DNA of 59,465 nt, counting the filler, from Malassezia furfur (lineage: Eukaryota), in the NCBI GenBank assembly GCA_052055015.1. It is 3 parts of 3 records of this genome, joined end to end, with 100 filler letters (N's around TTAATTAATTAA, not from the genome) between each part and the next. Parts side by side here need not be neighbours in the genome. Positions count along the whole stretch, not along the records: positions 1 to 19,850 come from JBQJIT010000182.1; positions 19,951 to 39,768 come from JBQJIT010000183.1; positions 39,869 to 59,465 come from JBQJIT010000185.1. The stretch is one strand, 5' to 3'. Of this stretch, positions 1 to 41,810 are shown in pieces. The position numbers were made by a program, and so were the translations under genes. The notes beneath the pieces were generated by a model, which made no database searches, was not told where the DNA came from, and saw nothing but the letters and a program-made list of their open reading frames with translations. Within the stretch, counting starts at the first letter, position 1; every line of letters starts with the position of its first letter.

Positions 1-2162
1 TGCCTGCGAGCGGCTGCGGCAGCGGACGCGGCGGCTTGGCCGACGGCGTCGTGGGCGACGGCGGCGCGGTGTAGCGCGGCGCGTCGGGCGCGAGGTGCAT
101 GGCCTGCATGCCCTGCGCGAGCTGCGTGTGCGACGACGAGGGCGACACGGCGGGTGCGGCCGTCTTGAGCGTAGGGATCGCCGCGGCGCTGGCGCTCGAT
201 GTGTCGTGCATCGCCGGCGGCGTTGGGGCCGGCGGCGGGACCGCCGGGGTGTCTGTGGACAGCTTGAGCGGCGAGCGGCTCGTCTGGCGGTCCTTGTTGA
301 TGGTGGCGATGTTGCTCAGCAGCTGGTTGGCCATCTCCATCGACATCCCGCAGAAGTCCGGCACCAGGTGCGCACAGTCGGCGTGGCACGTCAGGTCGCA
401 CTCGCTGCACTTGCGGTTCGTGCGGCGGCCGAGCGGCAGCATGTAGCCGCAGTGGCAGCACCAGTTCGCACCGAGGTTCGTAAACGGCTCCCAGCGGTGG
501 GGGATGCGGTGGTTGAGCTTCACCTCGTCCCGGTCGGGGTCAGTGTTGCTCTTGCTGATGCACTTGGTGACCACCTTTTGCGCACACTTGCGGTGGCATG
601 TGTAGTTGCAATCCTGGCACTGGCTGCCCGCGGCGTTCAGCAGGATCTCGCCGCAGAGCGCGCATCGGATCATCTGGTAGAACTGCCGCTGAACGAACTT
701 GTGCCCGTTCACCTCCGAGACGTCCTCGCGGCGCTTGCGCAGTGCACCCTGGCGGCCAAGGCGCGCGTCGTACGGGCGCTTCTGCACATTCTGCTTCACA
801 AAGTTGAGCCGGAGCAAAATCGCACCGATCGGCTCCACGGCGAACCAGCCCTCGATGCCGCTCTCGACGGGCTTGGTCGGCACCAACTGCCCGGCCGGCG
901 TGTTGTAGAACGCGTCGCTGCCGGACGTCTTGTCGATCGTCGGCACCGACGGCTCCTGGCGCATGCGATCCGCCGTGACCCACTCCCCGCTCTGCCCATT
1001 GGCGGGCGATTGCGCGGGGCTGCTCTCCGGGCCGCCGACCTGACCAAACTTTTTGCGCCGCAGCTGGTCAACAAGGTCGCTGATCTTGATCCACACTAGG
1101 CCCACCGGCACCGGCTGGGCAGAGCCCACGCGGTCGTACACAATTAGCTCGATCTCGTTCGCATTGTCGATGGGCAGCTGGAAGTCTTCGTTCCACTGGT
1201 CGATGCGCGAGGCCTGCGTCTGCACACGCTCCGTGTCCTCAATCTTGAGCGCAATGTACGACTCGCGCGCACTACGCGCGCCGCTCGGCATTGCCGCGTG
1301 GTCGATGTCTTTCACCGCCTTGATCGAGATCGACAGCGTACCCGTCTGCGGCTTGCGCGCGCGCCGATTCGCATACACGTTCTCCTCTTCCGCCTTGGTC
1401 TCGTCGGGGTCGAGCACGTTGAGCTGCATGTACCGCTTGAGCGCCTGCTGGATCAGCACGAGCTTGCTCGCGCTCTCCGCATACCGCCGCTCGGCATCGT
1501 GCATGCTGCGCCGGTCGCCCTCAGCCTGGTAGAGCTTGGCGATCTTTTCAAAGCCTTGCTTGTACTGCCGCTCGAGCTGCAGCTTGTGCTCCAGCTGCTC
1601 GATCATGCGCGTGATCTTGGCATGCGTCAGCGGCGTCTCACACTTCATCAGGTCGAGGTTCGTGTAGTTGCGCCGCGTCATGGTCTCGTCGCGGCGCAGC
1701 GCACCGTCGGCCGCCGGCGCCACGTCGGGCACACTGCCCGGCACGCCGTACGCCGCAAACGCCCCGCTCCGGTACGCGGCGCTGCTGTCGATCGGGTAGC
1801 CCGGCTGTGGCGCACCCACAGACGACACCGACATGCGCTGCCCGGTCTGGGCCGCCACACTGGCGTCCATCGGCGTCATGCTGCGCCGCGCCGTCGGCGA
1901 CGAAGCCACGGGCGGCGGCGCGCCCATGTCCACCGAGCTGCGCGTCTGCAGCGAGTGCAGGCTCTCTTCGAGATACGAAATTGTCTGTTGCGCATTGCGG
2001 ATGTTCGACTCCGCCTGCCGGATCACGTCGGGGTTCGGCGTCGCGTTGCGCAACGTCTGGAACCCCTCAATCATCCGGCGTTGTTTCTGGATGCGCGCCT
2101 GCACATCCTCAATCCGACTGCTCGTAGAGGACTGCCACGTAAGCCTCTTCACCTACCTGCAT
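1..2162 (-). CDS. PKC1: Protein kinase C (fungal Pkc1), 5' part; continues beyond left edge of window
   Basis: ATG CAG at 2162, 25-nt intron 2156-2132, then HR1-like SRIEDVQARIQKQRRMIEGFQ. Two C1 zinc fingers follow (e.g. GHKFVQRQFYQMIRCALC...CQDCNYTCHRKC). Not in the ORF track because the frame runs off the window. Confidence 0.92.
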
Positions 2163-2362
2163 CGTACACCAACCACTCCGTCAATCCCAATCCACTCTTG
2201 TCGCACGCCCCCTCTGCGCGTGGTGGGTGGACACGGACCGCTCCACCGGCGCCGCGCGGCCGGCGCCCAGCGCGGTCGAAAGCTCGGCGTGGGGCTCGGC
2301 CGAGGGAGTGTCGCGCCCGCATCGCGCGCCTCGCCAGGCACGCCTCCTCCCCTTGCCCCACG

Positions 2363-3511
2363 ATGCCGGCCTTGGCCGTGGCCGTAGAGAGGGCATCGTA
2401 TAGCGCACACGCACACGTAGACTACGAACTGTGTGCACCAGAGCACACGACCGCATGCAGCAACGCACACGACACCGACGAGCCACGGATGGTCGTCGTG
2501 ACGTATGCCTGTGCGGTCGGCATGCAGGGCACATCGCATCTCCGCCGTCTCGCATCGAGTCAACTGACCCATAGCGGCCTCCGCGATGCCCTCGAGGCAT
2601 TTTTGGTTTCAGTAGGTCACCACGCTCACCCGGAACGGCGAGCGGCTCCACGCCCGCGCATGTCACGCGACGTACACGAGCGGGGTATGGGACAGCGCGC
2701 CTTTGCGCAGCGACGTACACGGCCATGCGGCAGCGACGTGCGACACATCCAGCCCCCCTCTTGCGTGTAGGTGCACCACTCACCCAGGGCACCTTGTCCT
2801 TGCCGATGCACCGCCGCGCGTGCCACGCCCCAGGTGGCCCGTGCGCATTGCGCTCGACGTCGTCTGGCGCGCCACGGACGATGCCGCGCTTGCTGAGCGC
2901 CTGTGTGCGCCGCGATTGGGTGCTGCGCTTGCAGCAATACATGCTGAGTTGCTTGTCCGTGTGTTTACCGCTGTGTGCCATCGCACAGGCGCCGCGATGC
3001 ACGGTGCCTACGCGCAGGTACGCTGCACACGAGTCTGACGCAGCGCATGCACCGAGTCGCCCCGTTGCTATACCGCATGGCACACGACCTCACCGACGTC
3101 CTAAGTACCTCGTCCCCTTCCTCTAAACGGGCGCGAAGGCCCGATTTGCCATCGGTTGTGTATGTGGATGCCGAAGCAATGGCAGCGGCGCTGCTCGACG
3201 CCGATCAGCGTGTGTTTCCTCCGCATTCGTTCGACGTACGTACGCATCTAATCCAGCTTCTTCTCACGACGGCGGTTCCACAGGGACAGGAGGCAATGTC
3301 TACGCCACGGATGGGGCGTGTCTCGCGCGCGTCCTATGCGCTCCATGTCCCAGCGCATTCGGACGAGACGCTGCCCCTGTTCAGCACCGACACTACCTCG
3401 CCACTCGAGCTGCCGCCCAGCTCGGTCGCACTGAATGCATCGGAGAGCGAGTCGGAGGTCACATGGGCAACACCACCATCCATGAGCTCGCCAACGCGGC
3501 GGAGTGCGTAG
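2363..3511 (+). CDS. Hypothetical multi-exon protein, unknown function
   Basis: Three ORF pieces (1298.., 2703.., 2975..) join in frame through tiny introns, e.g. 2767-2787, 3018-3043 and 3236-3256, each with GTRYG/GTAGG...CTRAC/CTAAT...CAG. The 5' exon structure is uncertain. Confidence 0.55.
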
Positions 3512-3525
3512 TTACAAAGGGCTAC

Positions 3526-9102: not shown

Positions 9103-9173
9103 CCTCTGCCGCGGCGGTGTCGTGACAAATTTCGCGCCGCGCACACGTGGATCTCCACATCGCTTGCGGCACG

Positions 9174-9821
9174 ATGCCGGGCAGCGACCGGCGCACGCCG
9201 CACGCGCCTGGCCTTGCACCGGATGCACCCGAGAAGATTGCACAAGGCGTCGCTTACAAGCAACAGGGGAACGAGGCGTTTGTCGCGCGCGACTTTGCCG
9301 GAGCGTTGCATGCGTACCACCACGCGGTCCTTGTACGTCGACGACGCCTGACACAGTACCTCGCGGGGCTCGACCAGTCCCCCGCAGCGGGCGTCCTGCC
9401 CCAGCAGGCGGCACACAACGACGCCATGGACCAAAGTGTCCGTGAAGACAAGCGCGAGCTAAGCCAAGTGCGCTCCAACGTACGTTACCGTTCGCTCACG
9501 CAGATGGCCGCTTGCTACTTGCAGCTCGCGCGCTACGACCGCGCCGTCGAGTCGTGTGACCAGGCCATTGCGCTGGACACGCACAATGCGAAGGCCATGT
9601 AGGTGGTGGTGAGTGACTGACGCAGCTATCGCAAGGCACAGGCGCTCGCACGTCGCGGCGACTTGCACGCGGCACAAGACTGGCTCGCGTCGGAGCCCGC
9701 GAAGCCGTACGCCAACGACCCTGCATTTCGTGCCGAGGCTCGCGCGATTGCAGCACAGATCGAGGCGCGCGAACGGAAAAGTGCTCAGGCCCTGCGGGGA
9801 TTCTTGAGCAAGGGACGGTAG
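9174..9821 (+). CDS. Small TPR-repeat protein (TTC9/FKBP-type TPR module)
   Basis: KQQGNEAF...ALHAYHHA, SNMAACYL and NAKAIYRKAQAL after removing introns 9333-9356, 9480-9503 and 9599-9625. Confidence 0.75.
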
Positions 9822-10043: not shown

Positions 10044-13000
10044 ATGCTGTGGCTGTCGCAGACGCACCCCGCATCGGCCACGGTCGCCGCCGTACGCCTT
10101 GACCGGTGGTACCCCGACGGTCCGTGCTTGTGTGTTGCGCAGCAAAGTGCGTTGGCCTTTTATACGCTCGCCGAGCATAGCACCGATGCAGAGGGCGTGC
10201 AACAGGCGCAGCGGCCACTGTCGCTCCTGGAGCGGGTGCCCCTGCGTGCGCGTATCCTGGCCCTTGAGGCCATCCGTACGGACGGCGCACCCGATCGCGT
10301 TGTTGTGCTCACTGACCACCCCGTTCCGCGCCTGATTGCGCTGCGTCCCACGAGTGCTTCGGACGTCTACGACCTTGCGCAGCCTCGTCCGTGGCCCCAC
10401 ATCCATACCGAGACAAGTCTTGTGCTGCACGACGCTGCGCGTCCTCCGGCAGAACTGGGATTGGGGCTGTACATGGAGCCGTCGAATGCTGCGCTACGCG
10501 GCCGGTGGGCCGCTACACACACCCACACCGGCCAGCTGCGCGTTGTTCCGCTGGACGGCTTTGAAGCGCCGGTGCAGACGTCGCACGCATTCAACGCACG
10601 GTATGTCGTATGCTGACACAGTCTTCCTCATGTTTTCCTGGTGCACGCCGCGTTCCTTGCGCGACGCGACGCCGAGGCGCCCGCCGTGCTGGCGCTGCTC
10701 AGCCTGTCGAGCAAACCGTCGAAGATTGCTGGGTTTGGTGAGCAGGGCCTGCCCGTGCTGTCTTTCCATATGCCGGATGCACAGACACAGCAGCTGGAGC
10801 CTGTGCCATGGGGTGCCCCACGCAAGGCGCCGCCGCCGTCCGAGGCGCCCGCCGAATACCGCTCGCCGGTCGCTCCTGGCCGGCACAAGTGGCCGGCGGC
10901 GGTCGGTCAGCGGATCGATGCAGCGGAGATTGACGCGCGCGAGCGCGCATGGCTCAAGGACCCGCTGGTACACGCGCATGTGCCGCTGCCGGTCGACGAC
11001 GCGCGCACGGCCCATCTGCTGTGCGCAGTGCCGGCCGAGGCAGGCGGCGGCGTGCTTGTGTTTTGCGAGACGAGCATCGTGTACGTGCCGCCCCCAACCT
11101 CCCCTGCGCCCGTACGCCCCCGCGGCGGCGCTCGCAGCGCCAAAGAGAAGCGGCGTATGAGCGCGGGCAAGGAGGCGCATACCGAACACGTCCAGCGTCC
11201 CCGCGCAGCGCCCAAGCGGCGCAAGGTGCCGGGCGCGGACACTGACACGTCCGAGGGCGATGCGGCGGACGACGGCACGCGGAGCGAATTGTCGGACGTG
11301 GCCCTCGCACTTACGCAGCTCGTGCACCTGCGTGTCGGGCGGCCGATGACGGTAGCGTCGGCCACGGTGTTGGACGGTGCGCCGCACGACGGGCCCGTCG
11401 AGGTGCTGCTTGGCACCACGGACGGTGCACTGTATGTACTGAAGCTCGAGCGGCACGCGACCGATGCGCACGGAAGCGCCGCACCCGGTGCGCCGGCCCG
11501 CGGCGTGGCACGCATGCAGCTCCGGCGTGTCGGCCACTCGTCGGTGGCGAGTGGTCCGCAGGGATTGACGCCGCTGGGCGAGCGCTTTGTGCACATCAGC
11601 AGCGCACTGGGTGACGCGGTACTTGTGCACGTGGATGACGTCGTCTCCGACGTGTACCGCTGGGCCAACCTTGCGCCGATCGTCGATCTCGCCGTCGAGC
11701 ATGGCGCGGACGACGCACGGACCACCCGCGCGCAGCGGCGTGTGGTGACGTGCAGCGGTGCGGGGCCGACGTGCAGCGTGCGTGTATTTTGGAACGGCGT
11801 CGCGACCACCGAGGTGGCCCGCATCGGCGTCGCGTCGTGTCTCGGCGTCGACGCCGTGCACACCTACACGCCGGACGCCGTGACGGCCTTCCTGGTGCTG
11901 CGCTTTGCGGCGCACACGCAGGTGCTCGACTGTGCGCGTGGCATGGCCGATGCAACCGACGTGTTCCGTGCGCGAGGCGTGCCGCTCGACGAGCGTGCGG
12001 TGCATGTACAGAGCGTGCGCGCCGCAGCGCCAACATGGGTCCTCGTCACGCGCCGCGTCGTAGCGGCAGTGCTGCCCAACACGTGCACGGTGTGGACGCC
12101 CCCGGACGACGCTGAAATTGTCGCAGCGGATGCACAGGATGACGGCGAGGTGCTCGTTGGTCTACAGGGTGGCTGTGTTGTGCTGCTCGCCCTGCACGAT
12201 GGCGCATGGGCCGTGCGGGCGTCGCATCGTCTCAGCGCGGACGTTGCGGCCGTGGCACTGCCCGGCGCCGAGACGCTGCCGCTTGCGCTTGTGAGTGTGT
12301 GGGACCCCCCCGGGCTCGTGGCGCTGTCGGTGCCGGATCTGGCGCCGTGCGCGTTCGACGGCGCCCCACGGCATGCACTCGGCGCACTGGGCGTGTCGTT
12401 GCGCCTCCACAGCTTTGCGCCCGGCACACCGACCTACGTGGTCGTGGGTCTTGCGACAGGCGCCGTCGAGGCGTACTCGCTGGCGCACGTCGGTGCGCCG
12501 CTGCATCCCGTCCATACGCTGCATATCGGCCCGGGTGCCGCGCACATCGCCGCTGTCCACGGCCGCAGCGTCGTGGCGTTTGGTGAGCAGGCATACGTTG
12601 TGTCGCTCCACGGCGAGCGGCTGCAGTACAGCGCGCTGCGATACACGCATCAACGCGCCGTCGCGTCACTCGCGCTGCCAACCGCCGACGGCACGGCGCA
12701 CGTCCCGCTCGTCGCCGCGCTCACGCACGAGGCCCTGCACGTGTTTTCCGTGGACGACCTGAACGGCACCGACGTGCGTACCGTCGACCTCGGCGTGGAC
12801 CAGCCCACGGCAATTGCTGCACACGACACGGAGGGCGCGTACGTCGTCACGACCTGGCCTGCGCTAGACGCCGAGCGCGGCGCAGAAGCCTGTGGCGCCG
12901 TCCGCATCGTACGGCCCGCCGAGTCGGCGCTGGGTGTGCCGCTGCGCCTGCTGCGCAGCGAGCGGCCCAACTGTGTCACAGTCGCCACGCGGCAAGGCCG

Positions 13001-13950: not shown

Positions 13951-16322
13951 CTAGGCTACATAGACCGAGCCGAGGTTCTCCAGGACGCACTCCACGTCGG
14001 TGTGTGCGTCGCGCACACGCAGTGCTCCGAGCGCATGCCGCCCGCGTGCCACCGCACACAGGTGCAGCACGGCCGTCGCACTGCTCCCGGCCGGTACCGT
14101 GCCAAGGCGCACCTCGGCGACCTCGGCCAGCATCGCTGTGGGCGCAAGCGCCGAGCGTGCAACCCGGCCCGCGTCCCACGCCACCACGGGCTCGACGGCC
14201 TCAGCAGACACGTTCGATACGCACACATGCACGGCCAGCTTGCCGCACACTGGCACCGCGTCGCCGGAGCCGCTCTCGGGCGCCACGCGGACAGAGGCCA
14301 GAAGGCGGCGATCCGTGCGCGCGCCGCCCGCGTGCTTTGCCCATTCGGCGCCCGCGCCGTCGCGGCCCCACGCCGTAGCGTGGTGTGCGCGAAGGGGGGG
14401 TGTTGGCACGGGCGCAAATGGCGCCGCACCCTGCGCGCGTGCCTGGGCGTCTTGCAGGTAGGCGAGCGGCGGTGCAGGCAGGGTGTCCACACGCGCCTCT
14501 TGGGCCGGCTCGTCGCCCGCTGCAGGCGCCCTGGCAGCAGCGGCCGGCTCACTGGGGCGCCGCGGCGGCGGTGGGGGGGTCGGTAGATCCCGCTCGACAT
14601 GCGCGGCAAGCGTGCTTGCGGCCAACGCCGCGTCGCCGGCCACTAACGCAGGCGGCGCAGGCGGCGCGCGGTCCGCATCGTACTGCATCGCATCGTACAC
14701 GACCGACTCAGCTGCAAGACGCACGTATTGCTCGACTTGCAGCGTGCGTAGGTCCAGTACGCCGTCCCACTGGGACGCACACGTCACGGGTGCGGCACCC
14801 TCCGCACGCACGATCGCGGTTTGTACCGTCACGCGCGTCTCACGCCGCGGCGACCACTGCTCAACCAGCGACGCAAGCGCGCCGGGCGCGCCGCCAAAGT
14901 CGTCGAGGTGCACCGTGTACAGCACGTTGAACTGCGCCCCCGCGCCGAGGCGGATCGGCCACGCAAAGCCGCCGTCCGCCGGTGCCACGACGGGGGTGAT
15001 CGACTCGGTGAGCGCATCGCTTGCCGCGTCGGGTGCAATCGGCCCGCCGACCGCAATGTCTACATCGTGCACCTGCACGTCACCGTGCGTCAGCGCACTC
15101 TCAAGCTCGATGCACAAAAAGACGCCACGCGCGCCGCTCGGCAAGGTATGCGCACGGTTCAGCGTGCGCATGCGCACGTACATGGTCGGCTGCACACGCA
15201 GCGACGCAGAAGCATGCCGCGTAAGCACGACAATACCACGCATCACCGCCGTCGCAACGTCGTGGGCTGGCGGCGCATCGGTCGTGCGCGCCGGCGGCAT
15301 CGACGTCTGTCTCGCAGGCGTCGGCCGCGTGGTGCGGTCGACATGCTGCGCCTTGTTGGCCACAGCGAGCGGCGCAAGCGCAATGTCGGCATCGGATGCA
15401 ATCGCGGCGTTTTCAAGGTCTTTTGCACGCGCCATGGCGTTCACCAGTTGCGCACTCTGGCTGAACGGCGCGACGAGGTGCACGCCTGTTGCGTGCGGGA
15501 CGAGCATCGAGAGCGGCAGCAGCGTGAGCCGTGACGCAATGTGATGGTGCCGCTGCTCGGCGGTCTCATCTGGGACCGTGACACTCTCGCTGTACAGGGC
15601 GAGCAGGTCGACGTCCACCACGTAGGGGTCTTCGGCGCTCAGGAACGGGTGGCCTTCGCCTGCTGCAAAGTGGAAGGGCGTCTGCGGCGGAGGCGCATCG
15701 ACGCGCCTCACAAGGCGAGAGAGGTCGAGGCGCAGCGCGAGTGAGGCGTCCAGGCGCACCGTGTCGATGCCCGGCTCGGCGCTGGGGTAGGCTGCGTCAG
15801 TGTGCACAACATACGTATCACGACATCACACAGCCAGGCGACGCGCCAGGCGTGGGCGTGTGTGTCAAACACGATGCCGCTCACAAACGCAGGGTCCGTA
15901 AGCGGGGTGCGTGTGTCTGCTTCAGCAAAGCGGTCGTTCTCGTCGCGCAGGACGAGCGTGCCGTCCGCCTGCGCACCGTGCCAGCTGCGCGTGAGCAGCG
16001 GCACGTCGTGGCCTTCGCGTGTGCCGTGCATCATCACATGCAGTGAGCCTAATAGTACGCGCAACAAGTGCGGCACACCGGTATCGGCGGCGGACTGGTA
16101 CGTCGCGTGCGCGGCATCGTCCGACGGCGCAGGCAGCTTGCTCGGTACACTGGGAAGCGTGAGCACGAGCTGCGCTCGGACGCGCTCGTCGTAATGCACG
16201 GCCGTTACCTGCTCCGCAGCATGCCCGGGTACCTGTAGCGACGCCGAGGAGCCCGTATAGAGCGCGGCCAGGTCGGTGCACAGCGCCCGCGCCTCGGCGA
16301 ACGCCAGCGTCGGGCACAGCAT
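13951..16322 (-). CDS. Probable TRAPP II subunit Trs65-like protein
   Basis: Two ORFs joined by 23-nt intron 15814-15792. Ig-like beta segments and C-terminal 'VRLGTVPAGSSATAVLHLCAVARGRHALGALRVRD' resemble TRAPP accessory subunits. Confidence 0.5.
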
Positions 16323-19850: not shown

Positions 19851-19950
19851 NNNNNNNNNNNNNNNNNNNNNNNNNNNNNNNNNNNNNNNNNNNNTTAATT
19901 AATTAANNNNNNNNNNNNNNNNNNNNNNNNNNNNNNNNNNNNNNNNNNNN
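19851..19950. other. Assembly gap / artificial linker
   Basis: 44 N + TTAATTAATTAA (19895-19906, stops in all six frames) + 44 N. Confidence 0.97.
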
Positions 19951-27317: not shown

Positions 27318-28483
27318 TCAAAAGCGCGCCCGCTTGGGGCTGCGATCACCGTAGTCCGCCGCGGGGCGGCCGTAACCGCTCGTAGCCACGGCCCCGTCGC
27401 GGTCCTGGTACGCAGGACGCGCTCCAGCGCCACCAAAGCTACCACCAAAGCTGCCGCCGCGTTGGCCCTCGCGCACGAACCGCGGCCGCGCCGCGTCGCG
27501 CCCAGCATAACCGCGGTCGCGGTCGCGCTCAAACCCGCGGTCGCGCTCAAACCCGCGGTCGCGGTCGCGGTCACGCCCGCCGTAGCCACTGTCGCGCGCG
27601 CCGAAGCCGCCGTCGCGCATTCCGCCGCGTCCACGCCCACGGAACGACGCGCCGCCTCGTCCCCGTCCGCCTCCACGCATGCCGCCGCGCGCGTCTGGGT
27701 GAGTAGGTGCCACGTACATGCATCGGCCACCGCCTTGATCTTGGGCCGTCGCGACTGGCCGCCGAGCCCACCGCCCAGGCGCTTTGGCTTCCAGTCCTTG
27801 ACTGTGCGCCCACGCTCGACGTCGACCATGATGCGCCGGCCGTCGATGCGAACCCCCTCGGCGCGCGAGTATGCCGCTGGTGGTTAGCAGGATCCACGTA
27901 CTCCGCATATCGCGCTCGCGCTCAAATAGAATGAACGCGTAGCCCCGGCTCTTGCCGTCACGGTCACGCACGATTTCGATGCGCTCGATCGGGCCATATC
28001 GATCGAATTCGCGGCGCAGGTCGCGCTCGGTCGTGGCATAGGACTGGGTCAGTGCATAGACAACGTACGAGCCGTGCAAGAAAGAGCGTCTTGAATGGGT
28101 CGCCAACGGCATGGGTATCCTTTTTGGGGTCGTCTGCATCGTCAGTGGGTGTGGGACGCACATTCTGCGCGCATGCGCTTTTGGGTCTCAGCGCGCTGCT
28201 TCGCACGCTCTTCGCGGCGCATCTCCGTCTGCGTAACGAGCGCGTGGGTGTAGGTGGTGTCGTCCTCGGTCGTCTCGCCGCGGTCTGCGGCCTCCTGCCG
28301 GGCGCGCTCGAGGAACGCGGCGACGCCCTCGAGCGGGCGCACGCGGCCGTTCGCGATCTTGTTCGCGGTACGTCGCTGCGGAGGCGCGTTCCAGTCGCGG
28401 TCCGCGCGCAGCGGCGTCGCGTGCTCAAGCGGCGCGCGCGCGACAAACAGCCGCAGCATCTGCGGCGGCAGCAGATGGGTCAT
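27318..28483 (-). CDS. SNP1: U1 snRNP 70 kDa protein
   Basis: [25 protein letters not shown] and [26 protein letters not shown]-rich tail; introns 28161-28134, 28068-28044, 27901-27877 and 27717-27695. Confidence 0.92.
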
Positions 28484-28541: not shown

Positions 28542-29319
28542 ATGGCGTCGCAAGGCACCGGGTACGACCTGTCCGCGAGTACCTACTCGCCGGACGGGCG
28601 CATCTTCCAGATCGAGTACGCGACCAAGGCGGTCGAGAATGCGGGGACCGCGATCGGGATCCGCACCAAGGACGGCGTCGTGTTTGGCGTCGAGAACCTC
28701 GTGCACTCCAAGCTGCTTGTGCCCGGCTCGAACCGGCGCATCTTTACGGTGGCCGACCACGTCGGCATGGTACGTCGTGCAACACTCACACCAGACCTCT
28801 GCTGGACTCACCGCGGACGGCAAGCACCTCGCGGGCCGCGCGCGCGACGAGGCCGACAACTTCTTCGACAACTACAAGCAGGCGGTGCCGGTCAAGACGC
28901 TTGCGGAGCGCGTCGCACTGTATGTGCAAGCGTTCACGCTGTACTCTTCCGTGCGCCCATTCGGGATTGCGTCTATTCTCGGCGGCGTAGACCGCGAGCG
29001 CGGGCCCCAGCTCTTCGTCATCGAGCCGAGCGGCATGTTCTGGGGCTACCATGGGTGTGCCATCGGCAAGGGCAAACAGTTTGCCAAGACCGAGATCGAA
29101 AAACTCTCGCTGGATACCCTCTCGATGCGCGAGGCGGTCGAAGAGGTGGCACGCATCATTTACAAGGCGCACGACGACGCCAAGGACAAGGAGTTTGAGC
29201 TCCAGCTCTCCTGGATCGGGCCCGAGACCAATCTCGAGCACCAGCCGGTGCCGCGCGAGCTGCACGACGAGGCAGTGCGCAAGGCACAGCTTGCGCTGGA
29301 GGAAGAGATGGAGGATTAG
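28542..29319 (+). CDS. PRE10: 20S proteasome alpha-7 subunit
   Basis: [23 protein letters not shown] and [10 protein letters not shown]; intron 28770-28794. Confidence 0.95.
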
Positions 29320-32559: not shown

Positions 32560-33721
32560 CTACGAAGCCGCGCGCTGGGACCAGCGCAGGTACGGCGCCG
32601 GCGTGGGGCGGCCCAGCACTACAAAGGCATTGCGCAGAGGGTTGGCAAACTGAAACGGTGTTCGTCTCCGCTGTGCTTCTCGCTCTTTCTTGGCCGCTTC
32701 AGCCGGCTGCGTCACAAAGTCCGCCGGCACAAACCAAGACCGCACGGCGGCATTGCAACGCGTCATTTGGCGCAGGCACACATTCGTTTCGAAGCAATCG
32801 GTCGCACTCCGTGGCATATCATACAGCTGATCCATTGCTTCGAGGCGAATCTGCTCAACCGTGCTGCGGTTCTGGCATAGGAGCCAGGTGTGGTATGTCC
32901 ATAGGCACGCCACGGGTATCATCCAAATCAGCGCGATCCAGAAAAACGCCACACTCGCAGGCGATGTCTGCAGCGCATGAACAAAGCCGCGTTTGGCGTT
33001 GGGATCACGCGGCACGGCGAGGTAATAGAGGTGCAAAATGCATCCCACGAGTCCCACAAAGCACAGGCCAAGCATGTGGCAGAGCATGCCGTAAAAGGTG
33101 GTATAATTGCGTCGCCCAATGCATGTGTTTAAGAAGACGCAATGGTGGTCCAGGCCATCGACACAGTTGTCGCACGACCGACAGTGGCTACACCGGGGCG
33201 GTCGGTACACCTGGCATGCGGTGCACCAGCGGCTCAGGATGTCCACCTCGATGCCCTTTTCCGGTACACCACCGTGATCAACACGTCGCAAATGCACCGT
33301 GCGGTCTTTGGCGGGAGGGTACGGCTCCTCGCTCCCAAGCGGCGTGGTCGCCTGTGGCTCGCGCTCAGGATGCGGGTCCAAGTGCCGTGGGAGAATGCCA
33401 GGGTCACAGAAAGACGTCGCACTGCATCAGAATCCACACGTACATCATCGCCGCCAATGCGCTCATCCAAAAGTATGCCCCTAGAACAATCAGGGCGGGG
33501 CTCACATTCAGCCACAAGAATTTGGCCTGCCATACGAGCCACAGCGCAGGTCCTGCCAAGAGGAGCGTAAAGGAGATGACAATGATCCAAGGACTCTCTT
33601 TGGAGGTCTGCAGGTGCCCTCCCAGCAGGAACCATGTCTGTCCCTCGTGCGTACGGTACACACGCTGCAACTTGCTGGGAGTCGGCGGCGTCATCCTCCA
33701 TGCCGAAAGGAACCTCCACAT
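32560..33721 (-). CDS. ERF2: DHHC palmitoyltransferase (Erf2-like)
   Basis: DPGILPR, CTACQVYRPPRCSHCRSCDNCVDGLDHHCVFLNTCIGRRNY; intron 33443-33422. Confidence 0.88.
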
Positions 33722-33731
33722 GACTACGGCC

Positions 33732-35297: not shown

Positions 35298-35352
35298 GGC
35301 GTGAAGACAGGCACTTTTTTTGGCGCACACTTCCTCCACACGAGCACTCCCG

Positions 35353-36014
35353 ATGCAGTGGATCCGTGTGGTCGTTGGGGCGCTATGTGCGGCCGCCGCC
35401 GTCTCGTGTGCATCGCCACAGACCGTCTTTCAAGTCCAGGGCCAGGCCGAGCCCGATCTGGTGGACCTGATGGTCGACGAAGCCCGCGCCAACGGTATTC
35501 ATCTGGACGATGAGCTACGCCCCACCTCCGCCGAAGCACAGGGTGGCTCGTTCTCCTGGACGCAGTGTGGCGGCGACAACTTTGCCGTGCGTGTTGAGTC
35601 GATCGAATTGTCGCCTGAGGCGCCCGAGCGTGGGCGGAATCTGACGGTGCACGGCAAAGGAACGCTGTCCCGCCGGGCCGACGTACGTTGACGCACTGAC
35701 CCAGTTTGGCTCGTACATCGATGTGAGCGTGCGTGTGGGATTCCTGCGCATCTTCTCGCAGCGCGTTGACATTTGCCGTGCGCTGCGTGAGAACGACGTC
35801 GAGGTGCAGTGTCCTGCTGAGCCGGGGCACTACGATGTCGTCCACACGGTCGAGCTTCCGTCGCAAATCCCGCCAGGTATGTCGCCCCTCTGACGCAGCC
35901 AAGTACAGCGTGCATATCGAGGGCAAGAACCACGAAGCAAAGCCCCTGGCATGCCTGGACATGACCGTCTCCTTCTCCATGTTTCAGCGTATGCGCTCGT
36001 GGCTCGGCTGGTAA
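35353..36014 (+). CDS. NPC2: ML-domain PG/PI transfer protein (Npc2-like)
   Basis: Signal peptide, SWTQCG, PERGRNLTV, DIC...QCP, IPPAKY and LACL; introns 35683-35704 and 35877-35898. Confidence 0.85.
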
Positions 36015-36039
36015 TTTCGTATCTCCACATAGTAACACG

Positions 36040-37998
36040 ATGGCGTCCGATGCGGAGGACGACGCGGAGGTCGTGCGCTTCCTGCTTGCTTCCGATACCC
36101 ACCTTGGATACCTGGAGCGCGATCCGGTGCGCGGCTCTGACTCGTTTGATGCGTTTGAAGAGATTTTGCAGCTAGCGCAGGCGCACGACGTCGATTTTGT
36201 CTTGCTGGGCGGTGACCTCTTCCACGAGAACAAGCCGTCGCGCGCGACCATGTACAAAACAATGTCGTTGCTGCGTGAATATACCCTAGGTGACCGTCCT
36301 GTCTCGGTGGAGTTGCTGAGTGATCCGATGGATGCGCGCGGACAGAAATGGTCGTTTCCTGCGGTGAATTACGAGGACGCCAACTTGAACGTGAGCATCC
36401 CCGTCTTCTCGATTCACGGAAACCACGACGATCCGCAGGGCGCAGACAAGGAGGGGCCGCTGTCGGCACTTGACGTGCTCTCCGCGGCTGGCCTGCTTAA
36501 CTATTTTGGACGCGTCGAGCTGGCGGCCGACGCGCGGACGAAGCGAAAAGCGACCGAGGAAGAGATGATCAAGCTGCGGCCCATCCTACTGCGCAAGGGC
36601 AGCACGCGCCTAGCGCTGTATGGTATCGGGAACGTCAAAGATGAGCGGCTCGTGTACGAGCTGGAGTCGAACCACGTGTGTATGTACCGCCCCGCCGAGG
36701 ACCCCGACGCGTGGTTCAATGTGCTCGTCGTGCATCAGAATCGCGCGGCACATTCGGCACGCGGGTTCATCCCCGAGAGTGCTTTTGATGACTCGGTCGA
36801 CCTGGTGGTCTGGGGCCACGAGCACGAGCAGCGCATTGCGCCGGAACCCATCTCGGAGAAGCACTACTACATTACGCAGCCGGGCAGCAGCGTCGCCACG
36901 AGCTTGGCGCCGGGCGAGGCGGTGGAGAAGTGCGTTGCGATCGTGAGTGTGTGCGGCAAAGACTTCAAAGTGGATCCTATTCCGCTGCGCACGCCGCGGC
37001 CCCTCGTGATGAAGGATGTTTCGCTCCCACACGAAGCGGCAGCGGCGCACCTCGACGTTTCGAGTCGCACAGACGTGGCCAAGCTGCTGCGCACGCACAT
37101 CGAGCTGCTCATTGCGCAAGCAATGCGCGACTGGGATGCACGTATGGCCGCTGTACCGGCCGACCAACGGCCCGAGCCGCCGCTCCCTCTCGTGCGCCTG
37201 CGTGTCGCGTACGAAGCACAGTTGGCACTCGGCAATGTCGCACGTTTTGGACACGAATTTGCGGGGCGCATTGCCAATACCAAAGACGTGCTGCAGCTAC
37301 AGCTCAAGCGAGGGCGCACGGCGCGTGCACCGTCGAGCGGACATGCCGTGCGCCTTGACAAAGACATGCTTCCTGCCGAAAAGCTTGAGCGCGTCGAGTT
37401 GGCGGACCTGGTCCAGGAGAATATGCGAGCACAGCACTTTGACCTGCTCGAGGGCGCACAGCTCCAGCAGAGTGTAATGCGCTTCGTGGAAAAGGACGAG
37501 TAGGTGGTTTACTGACGCAGGCGCGACGCTGTCGAACAGTGCGTGAGAGACTCACCCAGGTTGTTGCAGCGCACGCTACCCGATATCGAGGCAAAACTCG
37601 CTGCGCGCCATCTTGACGAGGCGCAGCTGCAGCAGGAAGTACGTAAGCCACTGACCCAGCTCGACCGTCTCACGGCGCACCCCGCGGCCATGGGGCCGGC
37701 GTCGGCCAGCACGGCTCGGCACCACGCGCCGCGCCAGCCGCCAACGCAAGTGTCGCTGTCACCACCGGCGTCGGAAGAGGAGCGCGGGCGCGCCCCGACG
37801 CCCGATTCGATGGACGAAGACTACGTGCCAGCGACAGCTCCCGTACGCCCTGCGCGCCGACGAACAGCTGCGGCATCACCGCCCGCGCCGGCCTCGCCAC
37901 CGGCGCCGGCCTCGCCGCCGCGCTCGTCGCGGGCTGCTGTCCTCTCTCAGTCGGCACGGCCGACGCAGCGGCGGAAGCGGAACCCCAACGTATTTTAG
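36040..37998 (+). CDS. MRE11: Mre11 DNA double-strand break repair nuclease
   Basis: ASDTHLG, GGDLFHENKPS, IHGNHDDP, VHQNR, WGHEHE and QPGSSVATSL; three 21-nt introns 37500-37520, 37539-37559 and 37639-37659. Confidence 0.95.
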
Positions 37999-38116
37999 CA
38001 TACCCGGACTATGGGCAAGGTATATGGTCCAACGATGCTTCGCGAGCATGTTCTGTACAACGCAACGCCCAAGCTCCCAGCGGGCGGTATCGAGGCGTTG
38101 CGGACGATGACGCCGC

Positions 38117-39100: not shown

Positions 39101-39137
39101 CGCTGACTAAACGTGGACGGCGCCGGTCGCCACCGCC

Positions 39138-39768
39138 ATGTACAACGGCATTGGGCTGCAGACCGCCCGCGGCAGGTGCGTGCTCTTTTTCTCACACAGC
39201 GGCACGAATGGTTACGTCCAGCGGAACTTGTCAAGCATCCGTCCCCGCGATGCGCCGCGCCCACCGCCGCAGGAAAAGGCGCGCATTTTTGAGCCCGATG
39301 AGCGCATCCTCGACCACGAGCGCAAGCGCAAGATTGAGATTCAGTGCATCGAGCTACAGGACGAGCTAGAGGAGCAGGGGTACGTCGCACCACTTACACA
39401 GCCTCCCGCATGATGAAATCGAGGCGCGTGTTGACGCGCTGCGCGCGCGACTGCGCGAACGCCAAGACGCCGTGCGTCCGTCCCACCAAGAAACCAAGAA
39501 TTTGCGTCCGTTAGATACCCATGCACTTGGTGCTGCAAAGAAACTTGAGCGCGAAAAGATGGAGCGCGCGCTACGGATACGCCCGGATTACGTCGAGGGA
39601 GAAGCGTTTTCACCCGAAATCCAGGAACGACGCAAGATGGAGCGCAAGGAGGAGCGCGCGCGTCTCCACGAGGAGGCCGAGGCGCGCTGGGAGCAGCGGC
39701 GCGCTGAGCGCGCTGAGCGCGACGTGCGCGTGGACCGCCGGCCGGACATAGACGACCCACGCGCGCCT
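39138..39768 (+). CDS. CWC21: Splicing factor Cwc21/SRRM2 N-terminal, truncated by the gap
   Basis: [24 protein letters not shown] and ILDHERKRKIEIQC; introns 39176-39199 and 39380-39401. Confidence 0.93.
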
Positions 39769-39868
39769 NNNNNNNNNNNNNNNNNNNNNNNNNNNNNNNN
39801 NNNNNNNNNNNNTTAATTAATTAANNNNNNNNNNNNNNNNNNNNNNNNNNNNNNNNNNNNNNNNNNNN
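39769..39868. other. Assembly gap / artificial linker
   Basis: 44 N + TTAATTAATTAA (39813-39824) + 44 N. Confidence 0.97.
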
Positions 39869-39900
39869 CCCCCCGCCGCAACCGTGTGGAGGCCACGACG

Positions 39901-41810
39901 ATGGAGGACGCCGTGCAGTACGTGCGCCGACTCACGCAGGCAGTTGCAGGCGATCCTTGGGTGTACGGCCGAGCAGGCTACGCAGGCGCTCCAGGTACGC
40001 CGCCCGCCATGCTCACACAGGACACGGGGCACGATGTGGACCGCGCCATGAACCGCTTGCTCGACATGTCCGCACCGGAATCGGCGCCCGCCCCGACACC
40101 GACGCCCGCGCCGCCCGCGCACGCGCCCGCACGGCCGCCGCTGCCGCTGCGCAGCACCGCGGCGTCCAAGGAGGTCGTGTACGACCTCGACTCGGACTCG
40201 CTGTCCGACTCGGACGCGCTCGCGATGTCGTCGACCCACATGGTGCCGGACGAAAGCGCCTGGTCGTGGGCGACCGCCCACGCCGCGCCGAGCCGCACCT
40301 CGCTCGACGCACTCTCGGAGCGCGTGCGCTCGCTCAGCAGCGCGCTCGGCGACCCGGACCAGCTGCCCGAGTGGCTCCGCCGCGGCGCCGGCGTCTTCGA
40401 AGGCACGGTCAACATGGCCAACAGCATCCTCGGCGCAGGCATCGTCGGCCTGCCGTACTCGATGCGCGAGTCGGGCTTCGTCGCTGGCGTCGTGCTGCTC
40501 CTCGGCATCGCGCTCCTCACCGACTGGACCATCCGCCTGATCGTGCTCAACGCCAAACTGTCCGGCCGCTCGACGTACATCGACATCATGGAGCACTGCT
40601 TCGGCCACCACGGCAAACGTACGTCGATCGCCCCCCTCTCACCCAGTCGCCGTCTCGCTGTTCCAGTTCGTGTTTGCGTTCGGGGGGATGTGCGCCTTCT
40701 GCGTCGTGGTCGGCGACACGATCCCCAACGTGCTCTCCAGCGTCTTCCCGGCGATCCGCAACACGTTCCTGAGCAACCGCCAGGTGGTGATCGTCGTGTG
40801 CACGATGGCCATCAGCTTCCCGCTCTCGCTCTACCGCAACATCGAGAACTTGAGCAAGGCAAGCGCCGTGGCCCTCGTGTCGATGGTCTTTATCATCATC
40901 GCCGTCGTCGTCCGCGGGCCGGCAATGCCCGCCGAGCTCAAGGGCGATGCGTCGCTCCGCGTACGTTGCCCCGCACTCACGCATGCAGTTCACCATCGTG
41001 CACCCCGCCAAGATCATCCGCTCCATCTCGGTGATCAGCTTCGCGTTCGTGTGCCACCACAACTCGCTGCTCATCTACGGCAGCCTCAAGGAGCCGTCGA
41101 TGGACAAGTTCAAGACGATCACGCACTACTCGACACTCATCGCCGCCGTCGCCGCACTGTCCATGTCCATCGCAGGCTACTGGTCGTTCGAGGACAAGAC
41201 ACTCTCCAACGTGCTCAACAACTTCCCGCAGACCGACACCATCGTCAACATTGCCCGCTTCTGCTTCGGCCTCAACATGTTCACCACGCTGCCGCTCGAG
41301 TGCTTCGTGTGCCGCGAGGTGCTCGAGACCTACTTCTTCCGCGGCGAGTACGAGCGCAGGCGCCACATCGTCCTCACCACCGCGCTCGTCGTCTCGGCCA
41401 TGTTGGTGTCGCTGCTCACCTGCGACCTCGGCGTGGTGCTCGAAGTGACCGGCGGACTGAGTGCCACGGCCCTCGCCTTCTTCTTCCCGAGTATCTGCTA
41501 CCTCAAACTGAGCCACAGCGCGTCGCAAGTCGACCGCGCCGCCCTCTACTTTGCCGTGCCGGACGACGACGAGGAGCAGAACGCCGCACCGCCCGGCGCG
41601 GACGACAGCGTCCAGGCGGACCACATCGCTCTCCCCTTGCGCCCGGGCGCCGACGCACACCAGCGGGGGCAGCAGTTCAAGTGGTGGGAGTCCACCAAGC
41701 TCCTGAGCATCGCATGCGCCGTCTTTGGCTTCGTCGTGCTCAACATCTCGGTCATCACCGCGCTCGCCGACTTCTGGTCCGGCCGCTCGGGCGCCACGCA
41801 CCAGTGCTGA
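39901..41810 (+). CDS. AVT2: Aa_trans family amino-acid transporter (Avt2-like)
   Basis: NMANSILGAGIVGLPY, SFAFVCHHNSLLIY and TLPLECFVCREV; introns 40619-40646 and 40961-40988. Confidence 0.85.

Follow-up and report, generated by a model that had tools for sequence, protein, structure and literature searches.

The genes in the window analysed here, 59,465 nucleotides (filler included) of nuclear DNA of Malassezia furfur, are interrupted by 37 short segments, between positions 2132 and 40988, that are very probably real spliceosomal introns of the canonical U2-type GT-AG class, reduced to an almost modular arrangement of near-minimal size. Among named species, M. brasiliensis is the closest relative. 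We infer splicing, splicing efficiency and the branch nucleotide alike from the DNA sequence. Accepted introns range from 21 to 37 nt (median 24), with seven of 21 nt, six of 22, three of 23, four of 24, eight of 25, two each of 26 and 27, three of 28, and one each of 31 and 37 nt. A preliminary description of the same DNA had proposed about 35 tiny introns; the seven segments that it gave as 21 nt long are all present with GT...AG ends, and no accepted intron is shorter, but its five introns of 22 nt should be counted as six.

Composite motif and intron layout

Both strands were scanned for a strict composite motif (GT[AG][CGT]G[TC], a spacer of 0-15 nt, CT.A[CT], 0-4 nt and YAG), with the chance level set by 200 first-order Markov simulations. 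The scan returned 40 matches on the two strands, where the simulations averaged 5.2 and never exceeded 14, so that about five matches are expected by chance when all spacer/tail combinations are summed, or approximately 0.07 per combination (5.2 over 80 combinations). Thirty-five matches were accepted and, together with 40961-40988 and 17599-17635, make up the 37 introns; four (3240, 18664, 24101 and 39922) are nested alternative 5′ sites. The last, at 56477-56507, sits within an uninterrupted aldo-keto-reductase Pfam match and was set aside as a probable false match. All 32 introns in genes oriented by Pfam lie on the sense strand, with no antisense matches.

The 6-nt 5′ splice site is GTAYGT or GTAGGT (GTACGT in 20 of the 37 introns, GTAGGT in seven) and is separated by a spacer of 6-13 nt, or 19 nt in one intron, from a 5-nt branch motif, CTSAC, present as CTGAC in 16 introns and CTCAC in 13. 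The tail consists of one nucleotide followed by CAG in 27/37 introns, placing the presumed branch A 5 nt from the intron 3′ end, and the minimum distance of this A from the first intron base is 15 nt. Judged from these sequences, the putative branch site and the acceptor are one composite signal, CTSAC-N-CAG. The spacers are arbitrary in sequence, and their base frequencies (A.20, C.34, G.28, T.18) reveal no pyrimidine tract. The motif and architecture statistics thus bear out the earlier observations of a branch motif abutting the acceptor, an absent polypyrimidine tract and, within the sample, a sharp lower edge at 21 nt. That floor follows by simple addition of the fixed parts: 6 nt for the 5′ site, at least 6 nt for the spacer, 5 nt for the branch motif and 4 nt for the tail.

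We propose that these introns would be recognised across the intron (intron definition); exon definition is implausible because one exon of 18 nt lies between two 21-nt introns. The 3′ site would be the first YAG past the branch, chosen without a polypyrimidine tract. The 21-nt minimum may then be what results when the fixed parts are combined with a spacer of the smallest size, 6 nt, so that the branch A never lies before position 16. It probably reflects how short an RNA can be and still connect the 5′ site helix to the branch helix in the active spliceosome.

As the floor is drawn from 37 introns in one window, it could be a sampling artefact of a single 39-kb stretch, with a genome-wide tail below 21 nt. 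In-frame, stop-free introns of less than 21 nt lacking the full motif would escape every test used, and the annotators of M. restricta chose a minimum of 15 (PMC6473144). Yet seven of the 37 introns are exactly 21 nt with none below, and no Pfam-supported gene requires a shorter intron for frame continuity. Spacers of 0-5 nt gave three strict matches, where about two are expected, all nested and sharing their acceptor with longer introns, so that no non-nested strict match has a spacer below 6 nt. We consider a sampling artefact improbable, though with a real minor chance of being correct.

Reading-frame evidence

The preliminary description held that the introns are needed to restore conserved reading frames, which is the case for 28 of the 37: in 24 the length is not divisible by three, and the other four are divisible by three but contain an in-frame stop. 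These 28 introns are as follows.

2132..2156, minus strand: 25-nt intron, protein kinase C gene (HR1/C1 domains); strict motif, sense by Pfam; follows an 8-codon first exon and links the ATG at 2162 with ORF 2-2131
3018..3043, plus strand: 26-nt candidate intron, small gene at approximately 2997-3508, close to its start; strict motif; frame test tied; the database-called ORF begins at ATG 3047, just downstream
9599..9625, plus strand: 27-nt intron, TPR-protein gene; strict motif; retention gives in-frame TAG and TGA
10601..10621, plus strand: 21-nt intron, CPSF_A/RSE1-family beta-propeller gene (CFT1-like); retention gives an in-frame TGA
15792..15814, minus strand: 23-nt intron, TRAPPC13/Trs65-like gene; strict motif; coding-frame shift equals 23 mod 3 (frame score 40 spliced versus -75 and -6 for the alternative frame relations)
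17599..17635, plus strand: 37-nt intron, endosulfine gene; connects the ATG-bearing exon with the one in which the Endosulfine Pfam match starts; outside the size class of the preliminary description
17720..17750, plus strand: 31-nt intron, endosulfine gene; Pfam continuity
18660..18684, plus strand: 25-nt intron, Med21; strict motif; frame shift fits 25 nt, not the nested 21-nt alternative
18761..18783, plus strand: 23-nt intron, Med21; strict motif; frame shift agrees in the simpler test, the codon-score test missing it as its window is longer than the last exon
21543..21564, plus strand: 22-nt intron, dihydrouridine synthase gene; strict motif; retention gives two in-frame TAG; frame shift agrees
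21864..21888, plus strand: 25-nt intron, dihydrouridine synthase gene; Pfam continuity; retention gives TGA
24092..24118, plus strand: 27-nt intron, VPS28; strict motif; retention gives TGA; choice among nested GT 5′ sites uncertain, a nested 18-nt alternative having a 2-nt spacer
24371..24395, plus strand: 25-nt intron, VPS28; Pfam continuity
25305..25329, minus strand: 25-nt intron, uncharacterised 827-aa gene; strict motif; frame score 48 spliced versus 12 and 7
27695..27717, minus strand: 23-nt intron, U1-70K; strict motif; splicing gives an RGG/RD-rich tail and read-through Ala-rich nonsense; codon score ambiguous because the region is of low complexity
27877..27901, minus strand: 25-nt intron, U1-70K RRM; exon match to human U1-70K
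28044..28068, minus strand: 25-nt intron, U1-70K; strict motif; frame score 27 spliced versus 12 and 14; the RRM_1 match begins at the second residue of the exon downstream
28134..28161, minus strand: 28-nt intron, U1-70K; strict motif; retention gives TGA; frame score 30 spliced versus 17 and 15
28770..28794, plus strand: 25-nt intron, proteasome alpha-subunit gene; Pfam continuity
33422..33443, minus strand: 22-nt intron, DHHC palmitoyltransferase gene; strict motif; frame shift agrees; spliced N-terminus membrane-protein-like, with ATG
35683..35704, plus strand: 22-nt intron, ML-domain (Npc2-like) gene; Pfam continuity; retention gives TGA
35877..35898, plus strand: 22-nt intron, ML-domain gene; strict motif; retention gives TGA; frame shift agrees
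37500..37520, plus strand: 21-nt intron, Mre11; retention gives TAG and TGA; homologues and orthologous DNA
39380..39401, plus strand: 22-nt intron, cwf21-domain gene; cwf21 Pfam match extends to the final residue of the exon upstream
39918..39939, plus strand: 22-nt intron near the start of an amino-acid transporter gene; strict motif; frame test uninformative because of the upstream N block and a 55-nt exon
39995..40020, plus strand: 26-nt intron, amino-acid transporter gene; strict motif; frame score 25 spliced versus 17 and 11
40619..40646, plus strand: 28-nt intron, amino-acid transporter gene; strict motif; frame score 47 spliced versus 1 and 12; the downstream frame carries Aa_trans profile positions 86-172
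40961..40988, plus strand: 28-nt intron, amino-acid transporter gene; Pfam frames; frame score 51 spliced versus 10 and 20

A crude codon-score test found the frame offset predicted by intron length in 19 of the 24 introns with a length not divisible by three, and a simpler version agreed for 30 of 36; the misses (5/24 and 6/36) involve short terminal exons, the N block and the low-complexity tail. A single ORF running across all junctions is a weak criterion in GC-rich DNA, and in the transporter gene a wrong set of frames is also open. Profile matches were placed at several junctions. The Endosulfine profile runs over positions 3-30 to the end of the exon upstream of 17720 and 32-73 from the first residue downstream; Dus over 53-108 in the exon upstream of 21864 and 116-240 from residue 2 downstream; VPS28 over 1-62 to the upstream exon end at 24371 and 64-188 from downstream residue 1; Proteasome over 1-48 to the last upstream residue at 28770 and 50-189 from downstream residue 2; and ML over 1-45 and then 49-107 across 35683. 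Aa_trans positions 86-172 and 190-376 flank 40961..40988 in frames offset by 28 mod 3.

Stop-free introns and homologue evidence

The remaining nine introns are in-frame and stop-free and are therefore not required for the reading frame, so that the frame argument contributes nothing there and the claim of the preliminary description does not extend to them. They are given here with a micro-exon.

2767..2787, plus strand: 21-nt candidate intron, small gene at approximately 2997-3508; motif only
3236..3256, plus strand: 21-nt candidate intron; strict motif
9333..9356, plus strand: 24-nt intron, TPR-protein gene; strict motif; coding potential in one frame on both flanks
9480..9503, plus strand: 24-nt intron, TPR-protein gene; strict motif
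21233..21256, minus strand: 24-nt candidate intron, uncharacterised gene 19898-21556; motif only, ambiguous frame scores
34092..34112, minus strand: 21-nt intron, Rio2; homologues and orthologous DNA
37521..37538, plus strand: 18-nt micro-exon of six codons, flanked on both sides by a 21-nt intron, Mre11; homologues and orthologous DNA
37539..37559, plus strand: 21-nt intron, Mre11; homologues and orthologous DNA
37639..37659, plus strand: 21-nt intron, Mre11; homologues and orthologous DNA
39176..39199, plus strand: 24-nt intron, cwf21-domain gene; L002 orthologue

Five of the seven 21-nt introns, along with several others, are confirmed by alignment with homologues or by orthologous DNA that lacks the intron; 2767 and 3236 are the two for which the motif is the one line of evidence. 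The spliced model at 10601..10621 is colinear across the junction with 12/12 aligned homologues. For Mre11, a model without any of the three 21-nt segments is colinear with 12 of 14 homologues; retention of 37539..37559 or 37639..37659 would add seven residues in each case, which are found in none of the 14 aligned homologues nor in orthologous DNA, and the six residues of the micro-exon are conserved in 12/14. The seven residues encoded by the Rio2 segment are absent from 12 of 16 homologues, and the inserts of the other four (7, 7 and 8 residues, and one model running off) resemble translated splice signals. Orthologous DNA (L001 and L002) came from a relative with a GC content of 0.50, and reads as uninterrupted coding sequence where the window has the three Mre11 introns, the intron of Rio2 and, in the ML-domain gene, the intron at 35683: L001 and L002 are both contiguous at 37500..37520 and encode the micro-exon contiguously, and L002 is contiguous at the Rio2 position and coding at that of the ML-domain intron. 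At the two cwf21 positions the relative has motif-bearing segments of its own, of 28 and 24 nt compared with 24 (39176) and 22 nt (39380) here, and at the former tblastn places the flanking exons of L002 in different frames.

Homologues or orthologous DNA thereby support four of the nine stop-free introns (34092, 37539, 37639 and 39176), and the motif is what backs the other five (2767, 3236, 9333, 9480 and 21233). Some of these five may not be removed, being instead coding or UTR sequence that happens to match the motif, or may often be retained to give variants of 7-8 residues. All five stand apart from frame and homologue support, and stops in introns that are multiples of three are not enriched (4/13 against a baseline of 33/111), so that retention would escape nonsense surveillance. 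Mildly against the intron at 9480-9503, a TPR_1 match in the unspliced ORF reaches five residues into it, the exon downstream beginning at profile position 7. The segment at 2767 lies upstream of the first in-frame ATG (2997) between flanks that score weakly as coding, and is probably in the 5′ UTR. At 3236, the only relative found (P0155, approximately 75-76% identity) has seven residues, V-C-M-H-L-T-Q, and keeps the GT.TGT, CT.AC and CAG signals. Against non-removal are the low chance rate per spacer/tail combination given above, the sense orientation of all five segments and the confirmation of the four other stop-free cases. We therefore regard non-removal of some of the five as unlikely.

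That the 37 segments are not introns at all, and represent assembly frameshifts, pseudogene lesions or non-spliceosomal removal, is effectively refuted. We found no point in its support, and it is opposed by the uniformity of the GT...CTSAC...CAG units, all on the sense strand, by the essential nature of host genes (proteasome, U1-70K, Rio2, Mre11), by boundaries that are exact with respect to homologues and by units of different length at the same positions in the relative.

Relation to known introns and to the spliceosome

Very short introns are already on record for this genus, and the novelty claimed in the preliminary description was overstated. Table 2 of PMC5389616 lists 5350 introns for curated M. 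sympodialis, with a mean of 30 bp and 99% supported by RNA-seq; in M. restricta average and median are 37.2 and 30.0 (PMC9241646, Table 1) and annotation was run with the minimum intron length set to 20 and 15 (PMC6473144); and a review mentions ‘very short introns’ (PMC7426719). The contribution of this analysis is a sharper description of known short introns rather than a new kind of splicing.

The preliminary description suggested that the floor may reflect a modified spliceosome geometry, with U1 and U2 hardly able to occupy the intron together; in its fuller form this reading makes the geometry lineage-specific, with components such as U2AF or SF1 altered or lost. The tight spacing of the branch A (15 nt past the first base, 5 nt before the 3′ end), the lack of a pyrimidine tract and the preference for CTCAC and CTGAC over CTAAC (29 versus 2), which suggests that U2 pairing may differ, are in its favour. 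Against it, the splice signals are ordinary fungal consensus, and the relative's orthologous introns are just 2-4 nt longer, as in a continuum and not a switch. In Stentor, recognisable spliceosomes handle introns of 15-16 nt (cited in PMC13644364); with shorter introns being spliced in other lineages, 21 nt cannot be a limit of general validity. A modified geometry thus seems quite unlikely to us, and the compact introns described here are the extreme end of a documented genus-wide trait, with no evidence of a different splicing machine. No snRNA was found within the window. The only U1 protein gene that it contains, U1-70K, is also the one feature there that bears on this reading, and it looks conventional: the usual N-terminal domain, RRM and RGG/RD tail are all present, and the order of residues follows the human protein colinearly, the exons flanking 27877..27901 matching human residues 112-157 and 160-201 on either side of a single split codon.

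RESULTS

Host and gene content

The window is GC-rich (0.54–0.70) eukaryotic nuclear DNA, and its assignment to a Malassezia nuclear genome agrees with the best named protein matches, which are to Malassezia, and with the LIP secretory lipase cluster that it carries. Pfam searches of the open frames identified protein kinase C, Sen1 helicase, a CPSF_A/RSE1-family propeller protein, mitochondrial porin, endosulfine, Med21, dihydrouridine synthase, VPS28, U1-70K, a proteasome alpha subunit, Src1/Heh, a DHHC palmitoyltransferase, Rio2, an ML-domain protein, Mre11, Rcd1, a cwf21-domain protein and an amino-acid transporter; from ~41 kb onward they identified five LIP secretory lipases (five ORFs), an FTR1 iron permease adjoining a multicopper oxidase, an aldo-keto reductase and an MFS transporter, and a Zn-cluster factor also lies in this part. 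Identity to named relatives was 83 % for Rio2 (M. brasiliensis). Of the nine named Malassezia models of Mre11, eight were 61–67 % identical to the query, and the M. globosa model reached 63 % across 85 % of it. The two N stretches (19851–19950 and 39769–39868) share a 44 + 12 + 44 layout at a distance of 19918 nt from each other; the second interrupts the cwf21 gene at its end and the transporter gene at its start.

A narrow class of very short introns

Both strands were scanned with a strict composite motif, GT[AG][CGT]G[TC], a spacer of 0–15 nt, CT.A[CT], 0–4 nt and YAG. This gave 40 matches, whereas 200 first-order Markov simulations with local composition preserved averaged 5.2 and never exceeded 14. 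In a relaxed scan, likewise of both strands, candidate lengths piled up at 21–28 nt. Thirty-five strict matches were accepted as introns and four were nested alternative 5' sites (3240, 18664, 24101 and 39922), each having its acceptor in common with a longer match. The other, 56477–56507, lies inside an uninterrupted aldo-keto-reductase domain and was taken as a chance match. Introns of 17–18 nt starting at nested shorter 5' sites were rejected, on account of spacers of 2–3 nt or a wrong frame, and a nested 21-nt intron at 18664 was rejected with the other nested sites on the same spacer or frame grounds; only three strict matches had a spacer of 0–5 nt, all of them nested, where about two are expected by chance. 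Two further introns fall just beyond the strict pattern, 40961–40988 with an 8-nt tail and 17599–17635 with a 19-nt spacer, bringing the accepted set to 37, which are named here by their start coordinates.

Table. Composition of the 37 accepted introns (class, then number of introns)
Length: 21 nt, 7; 22 nt, 6; 23 nt, 3; 24 nt, 4; 25 nt, 8; 26 nt, 2; 27 nt, 2; 28 nt, 3; 31 nt, 1; 37 nt, 1
5' site: GTACGT, 20; GTAGGT, 7; GTACGC, 3; GTATGT, 3; GTGCGT, 3; GTGTGT, 1
Spacer from 5' hexamer to branch pentamer: 6 nt, 7; 7 nt, 8; 8 nt, 4; 9 nt, 7; 10 nt, 4; 11 nt, 3; 12 nt, 1; 13 nt, 2; 19 nt, 1
Branch motif: CTGAC, 16; CTCAC, 13; CTTAC, 3; CTAAC, 2; others, 3
Tail past the branch motif: 4 nt (N+CAG), 27; 5–8 nt, 10

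Lengths range from 21 to 37 nt (median 24, mean 24.4), with 35 of the 37 introns at or below 28 nt and seven at the minimum, so that the set has the narrow distribution, mode below 30 nt and sharp lower bound of an ultra-short class (30 nt or less) such as that of ciliates, nucleomorphs, microsporidia and myxozoans. The preliminary description had named seven 21-nt segments (2767, 3236, 10601, 34092, 37500, 37539 and 37639), and all were found where it placed them, with GT...AG ends; its descriptive account is borne out in this window sample, which holds 37 introns, seven of them 21 nt long and none shorter. Their density is about one per kb between 2 and 41 kb. None was accepted past 41 kb, and the stretch 41000–59465, in which GC drops to 0.54–0.63, has no convincing short intron, compared with that density in 2–41 kb.

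The internal layout is nearly uniform. All 37 introns start with GT and end in CAG (36) or TAG (one), as U2-type GT-AG introns do, and all contain CT.A[CT], whose presumed branch A lies 5–9 nt from the 3' end (5 nt in 27 of the 37) and at intron position 16 or later in every case. The seven 21-nt introns have one and the same 6 + 6 + 5 + 4 layout, and the spacer accounts for nearly all variation in length. With a C+T content of only 0.52 the spacer is not pyrimidine-rich, so the polypyrimidine tract that had been reported missing is indeed absent; the introns as a whole are 59 % GC. U12-type introns have a rigid [AG]TATCCTT 5' site and a TCCTTAAC branch motif, and none of the 37 fits either. 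An origin in introner-like or transposon-derived families, was rejected because the signals alone are common to the set and the spacers differ in both length and sequence across the 37. Non-spliceosomal mRNA introns of the tRNA-endonuclease or Ire1 type have a bulge-helix-bulge or paired stem-loop cleavage motif and no GT-AG ends with a branch site; such a reading is unnecessary here because the GT...CTSAC...CAG signals are uniform.

Evidence for removal from the reading frame

The case for regarding the 37 segments as introns is a comparative one. All 32 that lie in Pfam-oriented genes are on the sense strand, and there were no antisense strict matches. For the 24 introns whose length is not a multiple of three, the predicted frame offset scored best in 19 by a crude codon-score test, and a simpler version of the score recovered the predicted offset in 30 of 36. 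The codon-score test, which uses a fixed window and stop penalties, misfires at terminal exons; misses arose where a terminal exon was shorter than this window, at an N block, through one tie and in the low-complexity U1-70K tail. The criterion of a single ORF across all junctions was dropped, as the frame set that it chose for the transporter gene conflicts with Pfam; it is weak because the wrong frame set is also open in GC-rich DNA. Individual tests of colinearity or of Pfam profiles across the junction cover the introns listed below; when exons were searched one by one, the profiles broke off at the donor and picked up again at the acceptor.

Table. Introns covered by individual junction tests, with the Mre11 micro-exon
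10601: CFT1-like gene, exact-boundary colinearity with homologues or orthologues
17720: endosulfine, Pfam profile 3–30 then 32–73 across the junction
21864: Dus, Pfam profile 53–108 then 116–240
24371: VPS28, Pfam profile 1–62 then 64–188
27877: U1-70K, exact-boundary colinearity
28770: proteasome alpha, Pfam profile 1–48 then 50–189
34092: Rio2, exact-boundary colinearity
35683: ML domain, exact-boundary colinearity; Pfam profile 1–45 then 49–107
37500: Mre11, exact-boundary colinearity
37521–37538, plus strand: Mre11 micro-exon, 18 nt, six codons, between two 21-nt introns
37539: Mre11, exact-boundary colinearity
37639: Mre11, exact-boundary colinearity
39176: cwf21-domain gene, exact-boundary colinearity
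39380: cwf21-domain gene, exact-boundary colinearity
40961: flanking Aa_trans segments in frames offset by 28 mod 3

In the CFT1-like gene all 12 homologues are colinear across 10601–10621, which introduces a stop if retained. The exons flanking 27877–27901 correspond to residues 112–157 and 160–201 of human U1-70K with one split codon between them, and splicing throughout gives a model that looks like a normal U1-70K, RGG/RD tail included; a PDB search gave no match for the N-terminal exon of either gene. A model of Mre11 without the three 21-nt segments is colinear with 12 of the 14 homologues aligned to it, which range from other Malassezia to Ustilaginales. The residues of the micro-exon are conserved in 12 of the 14 and contiguous in intron-less orthologous DNA, while the remaining two models (M. 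yamatoensis and M. psittaci) translate into the first 21-nt intron. Both of these models additionally contain the ML domain that belongs to the gene upstream.

The seven residues that intron 34092 would encode are absent from 12 of 16 Rio2 homologues. Inserts in the other four start with V-R or V-C, and three of them end in Q (7, 7 and 8 residues) while the fourth runs off, so that they appear to be translated splice signals. In the M. brasiliensis and M. equina models the in-frame intron is translated as 7–8 residues, and the M. obtusa model runs off there. A distant structure alignment of Rio2 is poorly conserved in this region, and it was the closer homologues that decided the intron.

Orthologous DNA was available from two metagenome contigs of a Malassezia relative (L001 and L002; GC 0.48–0.50, L002 from a 72-kb contig), in which the gene order Rio2 / ML / Mre11 / Rcd1 / cwf21 is kept (L002:1–7452 and L001:1–3585 against window 33700–39800). 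The relative's code is uninterrupted at the three Mre11 intron positions, at the Rio2 intron and at ML intron 35683, so five introns are absent, and at both cwf21 positions it has motif-bearing segments of 28 and 24 nt, compared with 24 and 22 nt in the window, the differences not being multiples of three. The missing five together with the longer cwf21 introns indicate that intron number and length differ strongly within the genus.

In-frame introns and weaker cases

It had been claimed that conserved reading frames need these introns. That is so for the 24 whose length is not a multiple of three and for four that contain in-frame stops; it does not hold for nine that are in-frame and stop-free (2767, 3236, 9333, 9480, 21233, 34092, 37539, 37639 and 39176). 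Homologues or orthologous DNA confirm four of the nine (34092, 37539, 37639 and 39176), and the other five (2767, 3236, 9333, 9480 and 21233) were accepted on the motif. In-frame stops occur in four of the 13 introns of multiple-of-three length, a share that matches the baseline of 33 of 111 intron-phase combinations, and there is no sign of stop enrichment in this small sample.

Five of the seven 21-nt segments (10601, 34092, 37500, 37539 and 37639) are well supported as introns by these comparisons, and the remaining two, 2767 and 3236, are plausible candidates. The first, 2767–2787, precedes the earliest in-frame ATG and could be an intron of the 5' UTR. Candidates 3018 and 3236 lie in a small gene (2997–3508), to whose 5' UTR 2767 probably belongs and for which only one relative was found; in that relative seven residues at candidate 3236 keep the splice-signal pattern, which is suggestive of an intron but not decisive. 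At 9480 the TPR_1 match is slightly longer in the unspliced ORF. The 5' part of the TPR-protein gene (9126–9495, plus strand) lies inside the Sen1 helicase open frame on the opposite strand (ORF 3529–9495, minus strand).

DISCUSSION

Very short introns are an established feature of Malassezia. Table 2 of the M. sympodialis study gives 5350 curated introns with a mean of 30 bp, 99 % of them supported by RNA-seq, and refers their length distribution to Supplementary Figure S8 (PMC5389616); Table 1 of the M. restricta study gives an average and median of 37.2 and 30.0 bp (PMC9241646), and for the annotation of that species the minimum intron length had to be lowered to 20 and then 15 (PMC6473144). 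A review refers to Malassezia genes with ‘very short introns’ (PMC7426719), and automatic annotations of M. globosa average 76–79 bp (PMC4634964). The introns described here come from the same genus and a similarly compact genome, yet with their median of 24 nt (mean 24.4) they are shorter than the M. sympodialis mean or the M. restricta median of 30. Our full-text literature search found no text on a 21-nt edge, a fixed branch-to-acceptor distance, a composite motif or intron architecture in Malassezia, the length distribution appearing only as a figure; the genus is absent from a 590-species survey (PMC11649378) and from a preprint on spliceosome complexity (10.1101/2021.03.19.436190), and it is not among the exceptions (ciliates, microsporidia and dicyemids) in the passage of a 2026 paper on ultra-short animal introns that names them (PMC13644364). 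The short-intron trait is thus already published as summary statistics, and the same 21-nt floor may already be present in public annotations. The novelty is modest: a somewhat more extreme case of a known trait and a cleaner description of its architecture.

Several other lineages provide points of comparison. Paramecium tetraurelia is described as having tiny introns of 25 nt on average (10.1101/2021.08.05.455221). Its introns resemble ours in their narrow low-20s length distribution, GT-AG ends and intron definition, but they are AT-rich with a weak branch signal, whereas ours are GC-rich with a strong CTSAC motif. Stop-free introns of multiple-of-three length are reportedly depleted in Paramecium (work of Jaillon, 2008), with stops enriched; no such depletion is seen in our small sample. 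In the microsporidian Encephalitozoon, introns of 23–24 nt have nearly fixed ends and a branch site close to the acceptor. These are likewise ultra-short introns of the fungal lineage with the same near-fixed layout, but microsporidia retain just a few dozen introns and their spliceosome is reduced, unlike the dense introns and conventional U1-70K of this free-living, culturable basidiomycete. Nucleomorph introns (Bigelowiella) measure 18–21 nt. Those of Stentor are put at 15–16 nt in the ultra-short intron paper (PMC13644364). Like our set, both form a hard and narrow class of lengths that is cut off sharply at its lower end, but they have minima below 21 nt and much weaker branch signals. 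Giardia and Trichomonas introns have a branch site fused with the acceptor motif. This is likewise a composite branch and 3' site signal at a fixed short distance, but the motif and distance are different, introns are very few and the lineages are distant.

We infer from sequence that the segments are spliced, and likewise the branch nucleotide and all protein requirements. The 37 are most likely ordinary major-class introns at the extreme of compaction, in which U1 and then U6 would presumably base-pair at the 5' site and U2 at the branch motif, and the first YAG, a fixed few nucleotides past the branch, would serve as acceptor. Such spacing would make branch site and acceptor one composite signal for which a polypyrimidine tract is not needed, and the position of an 18-nt Mre11 exon between two introns of 21 nt speaks for recognition across introns. 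On this view the minimum of 21 nt would be the sum of the fixed parts and a minimal 6-nt linker, perhaps the least RNA that can bridge the helices formed at the 5' site and at the branch. The preliminary description had gone further, suggesting a possible modified spliceosome geometry. The U1-70K gene and the ordinary fungal splice signals in the window look conventional, an Rfam search of the window returned no family at gathering score and no snRNA, and the orthologous introns of the relative, just 2–4 nt longer, point to a continuum. Since Stentor splices introns of 15–16 nt with a recognisable spliceosome (PMC13644364), 21 nt is a property of the lineage and not a universal limit.

A bolder joint reading would make these well-defined introns the shortest set known from a free-living fungus that can be cultured and transformed, with a true hard limit of 21 nt, a branch A never before position 16, a fixed 5-nt branch-to-acceptor distance, 3' site recognition without a polypyrimidine/U2AF type of signal and perhaps sequential, not simultaneous, binding of U1 and U2. 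Taken together we consider this unlikely. Were it correct, the yeast would be a genetic model for minimal-intron splicing. Retention of the quarter of its introns that are stop-free and in frame would silently lengthen proteins by 7–8 residues, and retained introns of this kind are already present in current GenBank models of related species.

If the layout is real, simple reporter deletions could probe how short the stretches between 5' site and branch and between branch and 3' site can become, as Malassezia is culturable and transformable, and 6 + at least 6 + 5 + 4 nt would be a usable gene-finding rule for GC-rich Malassezia genomes. Since database models of relatives mishandle tiny introns, comparative proteomes of skin yeasts would contain systematic small errors, and a practical by-product of the present analysis is the set of retained or misread tiny introns in the Mre11 and Rio2 database proteins of related species.
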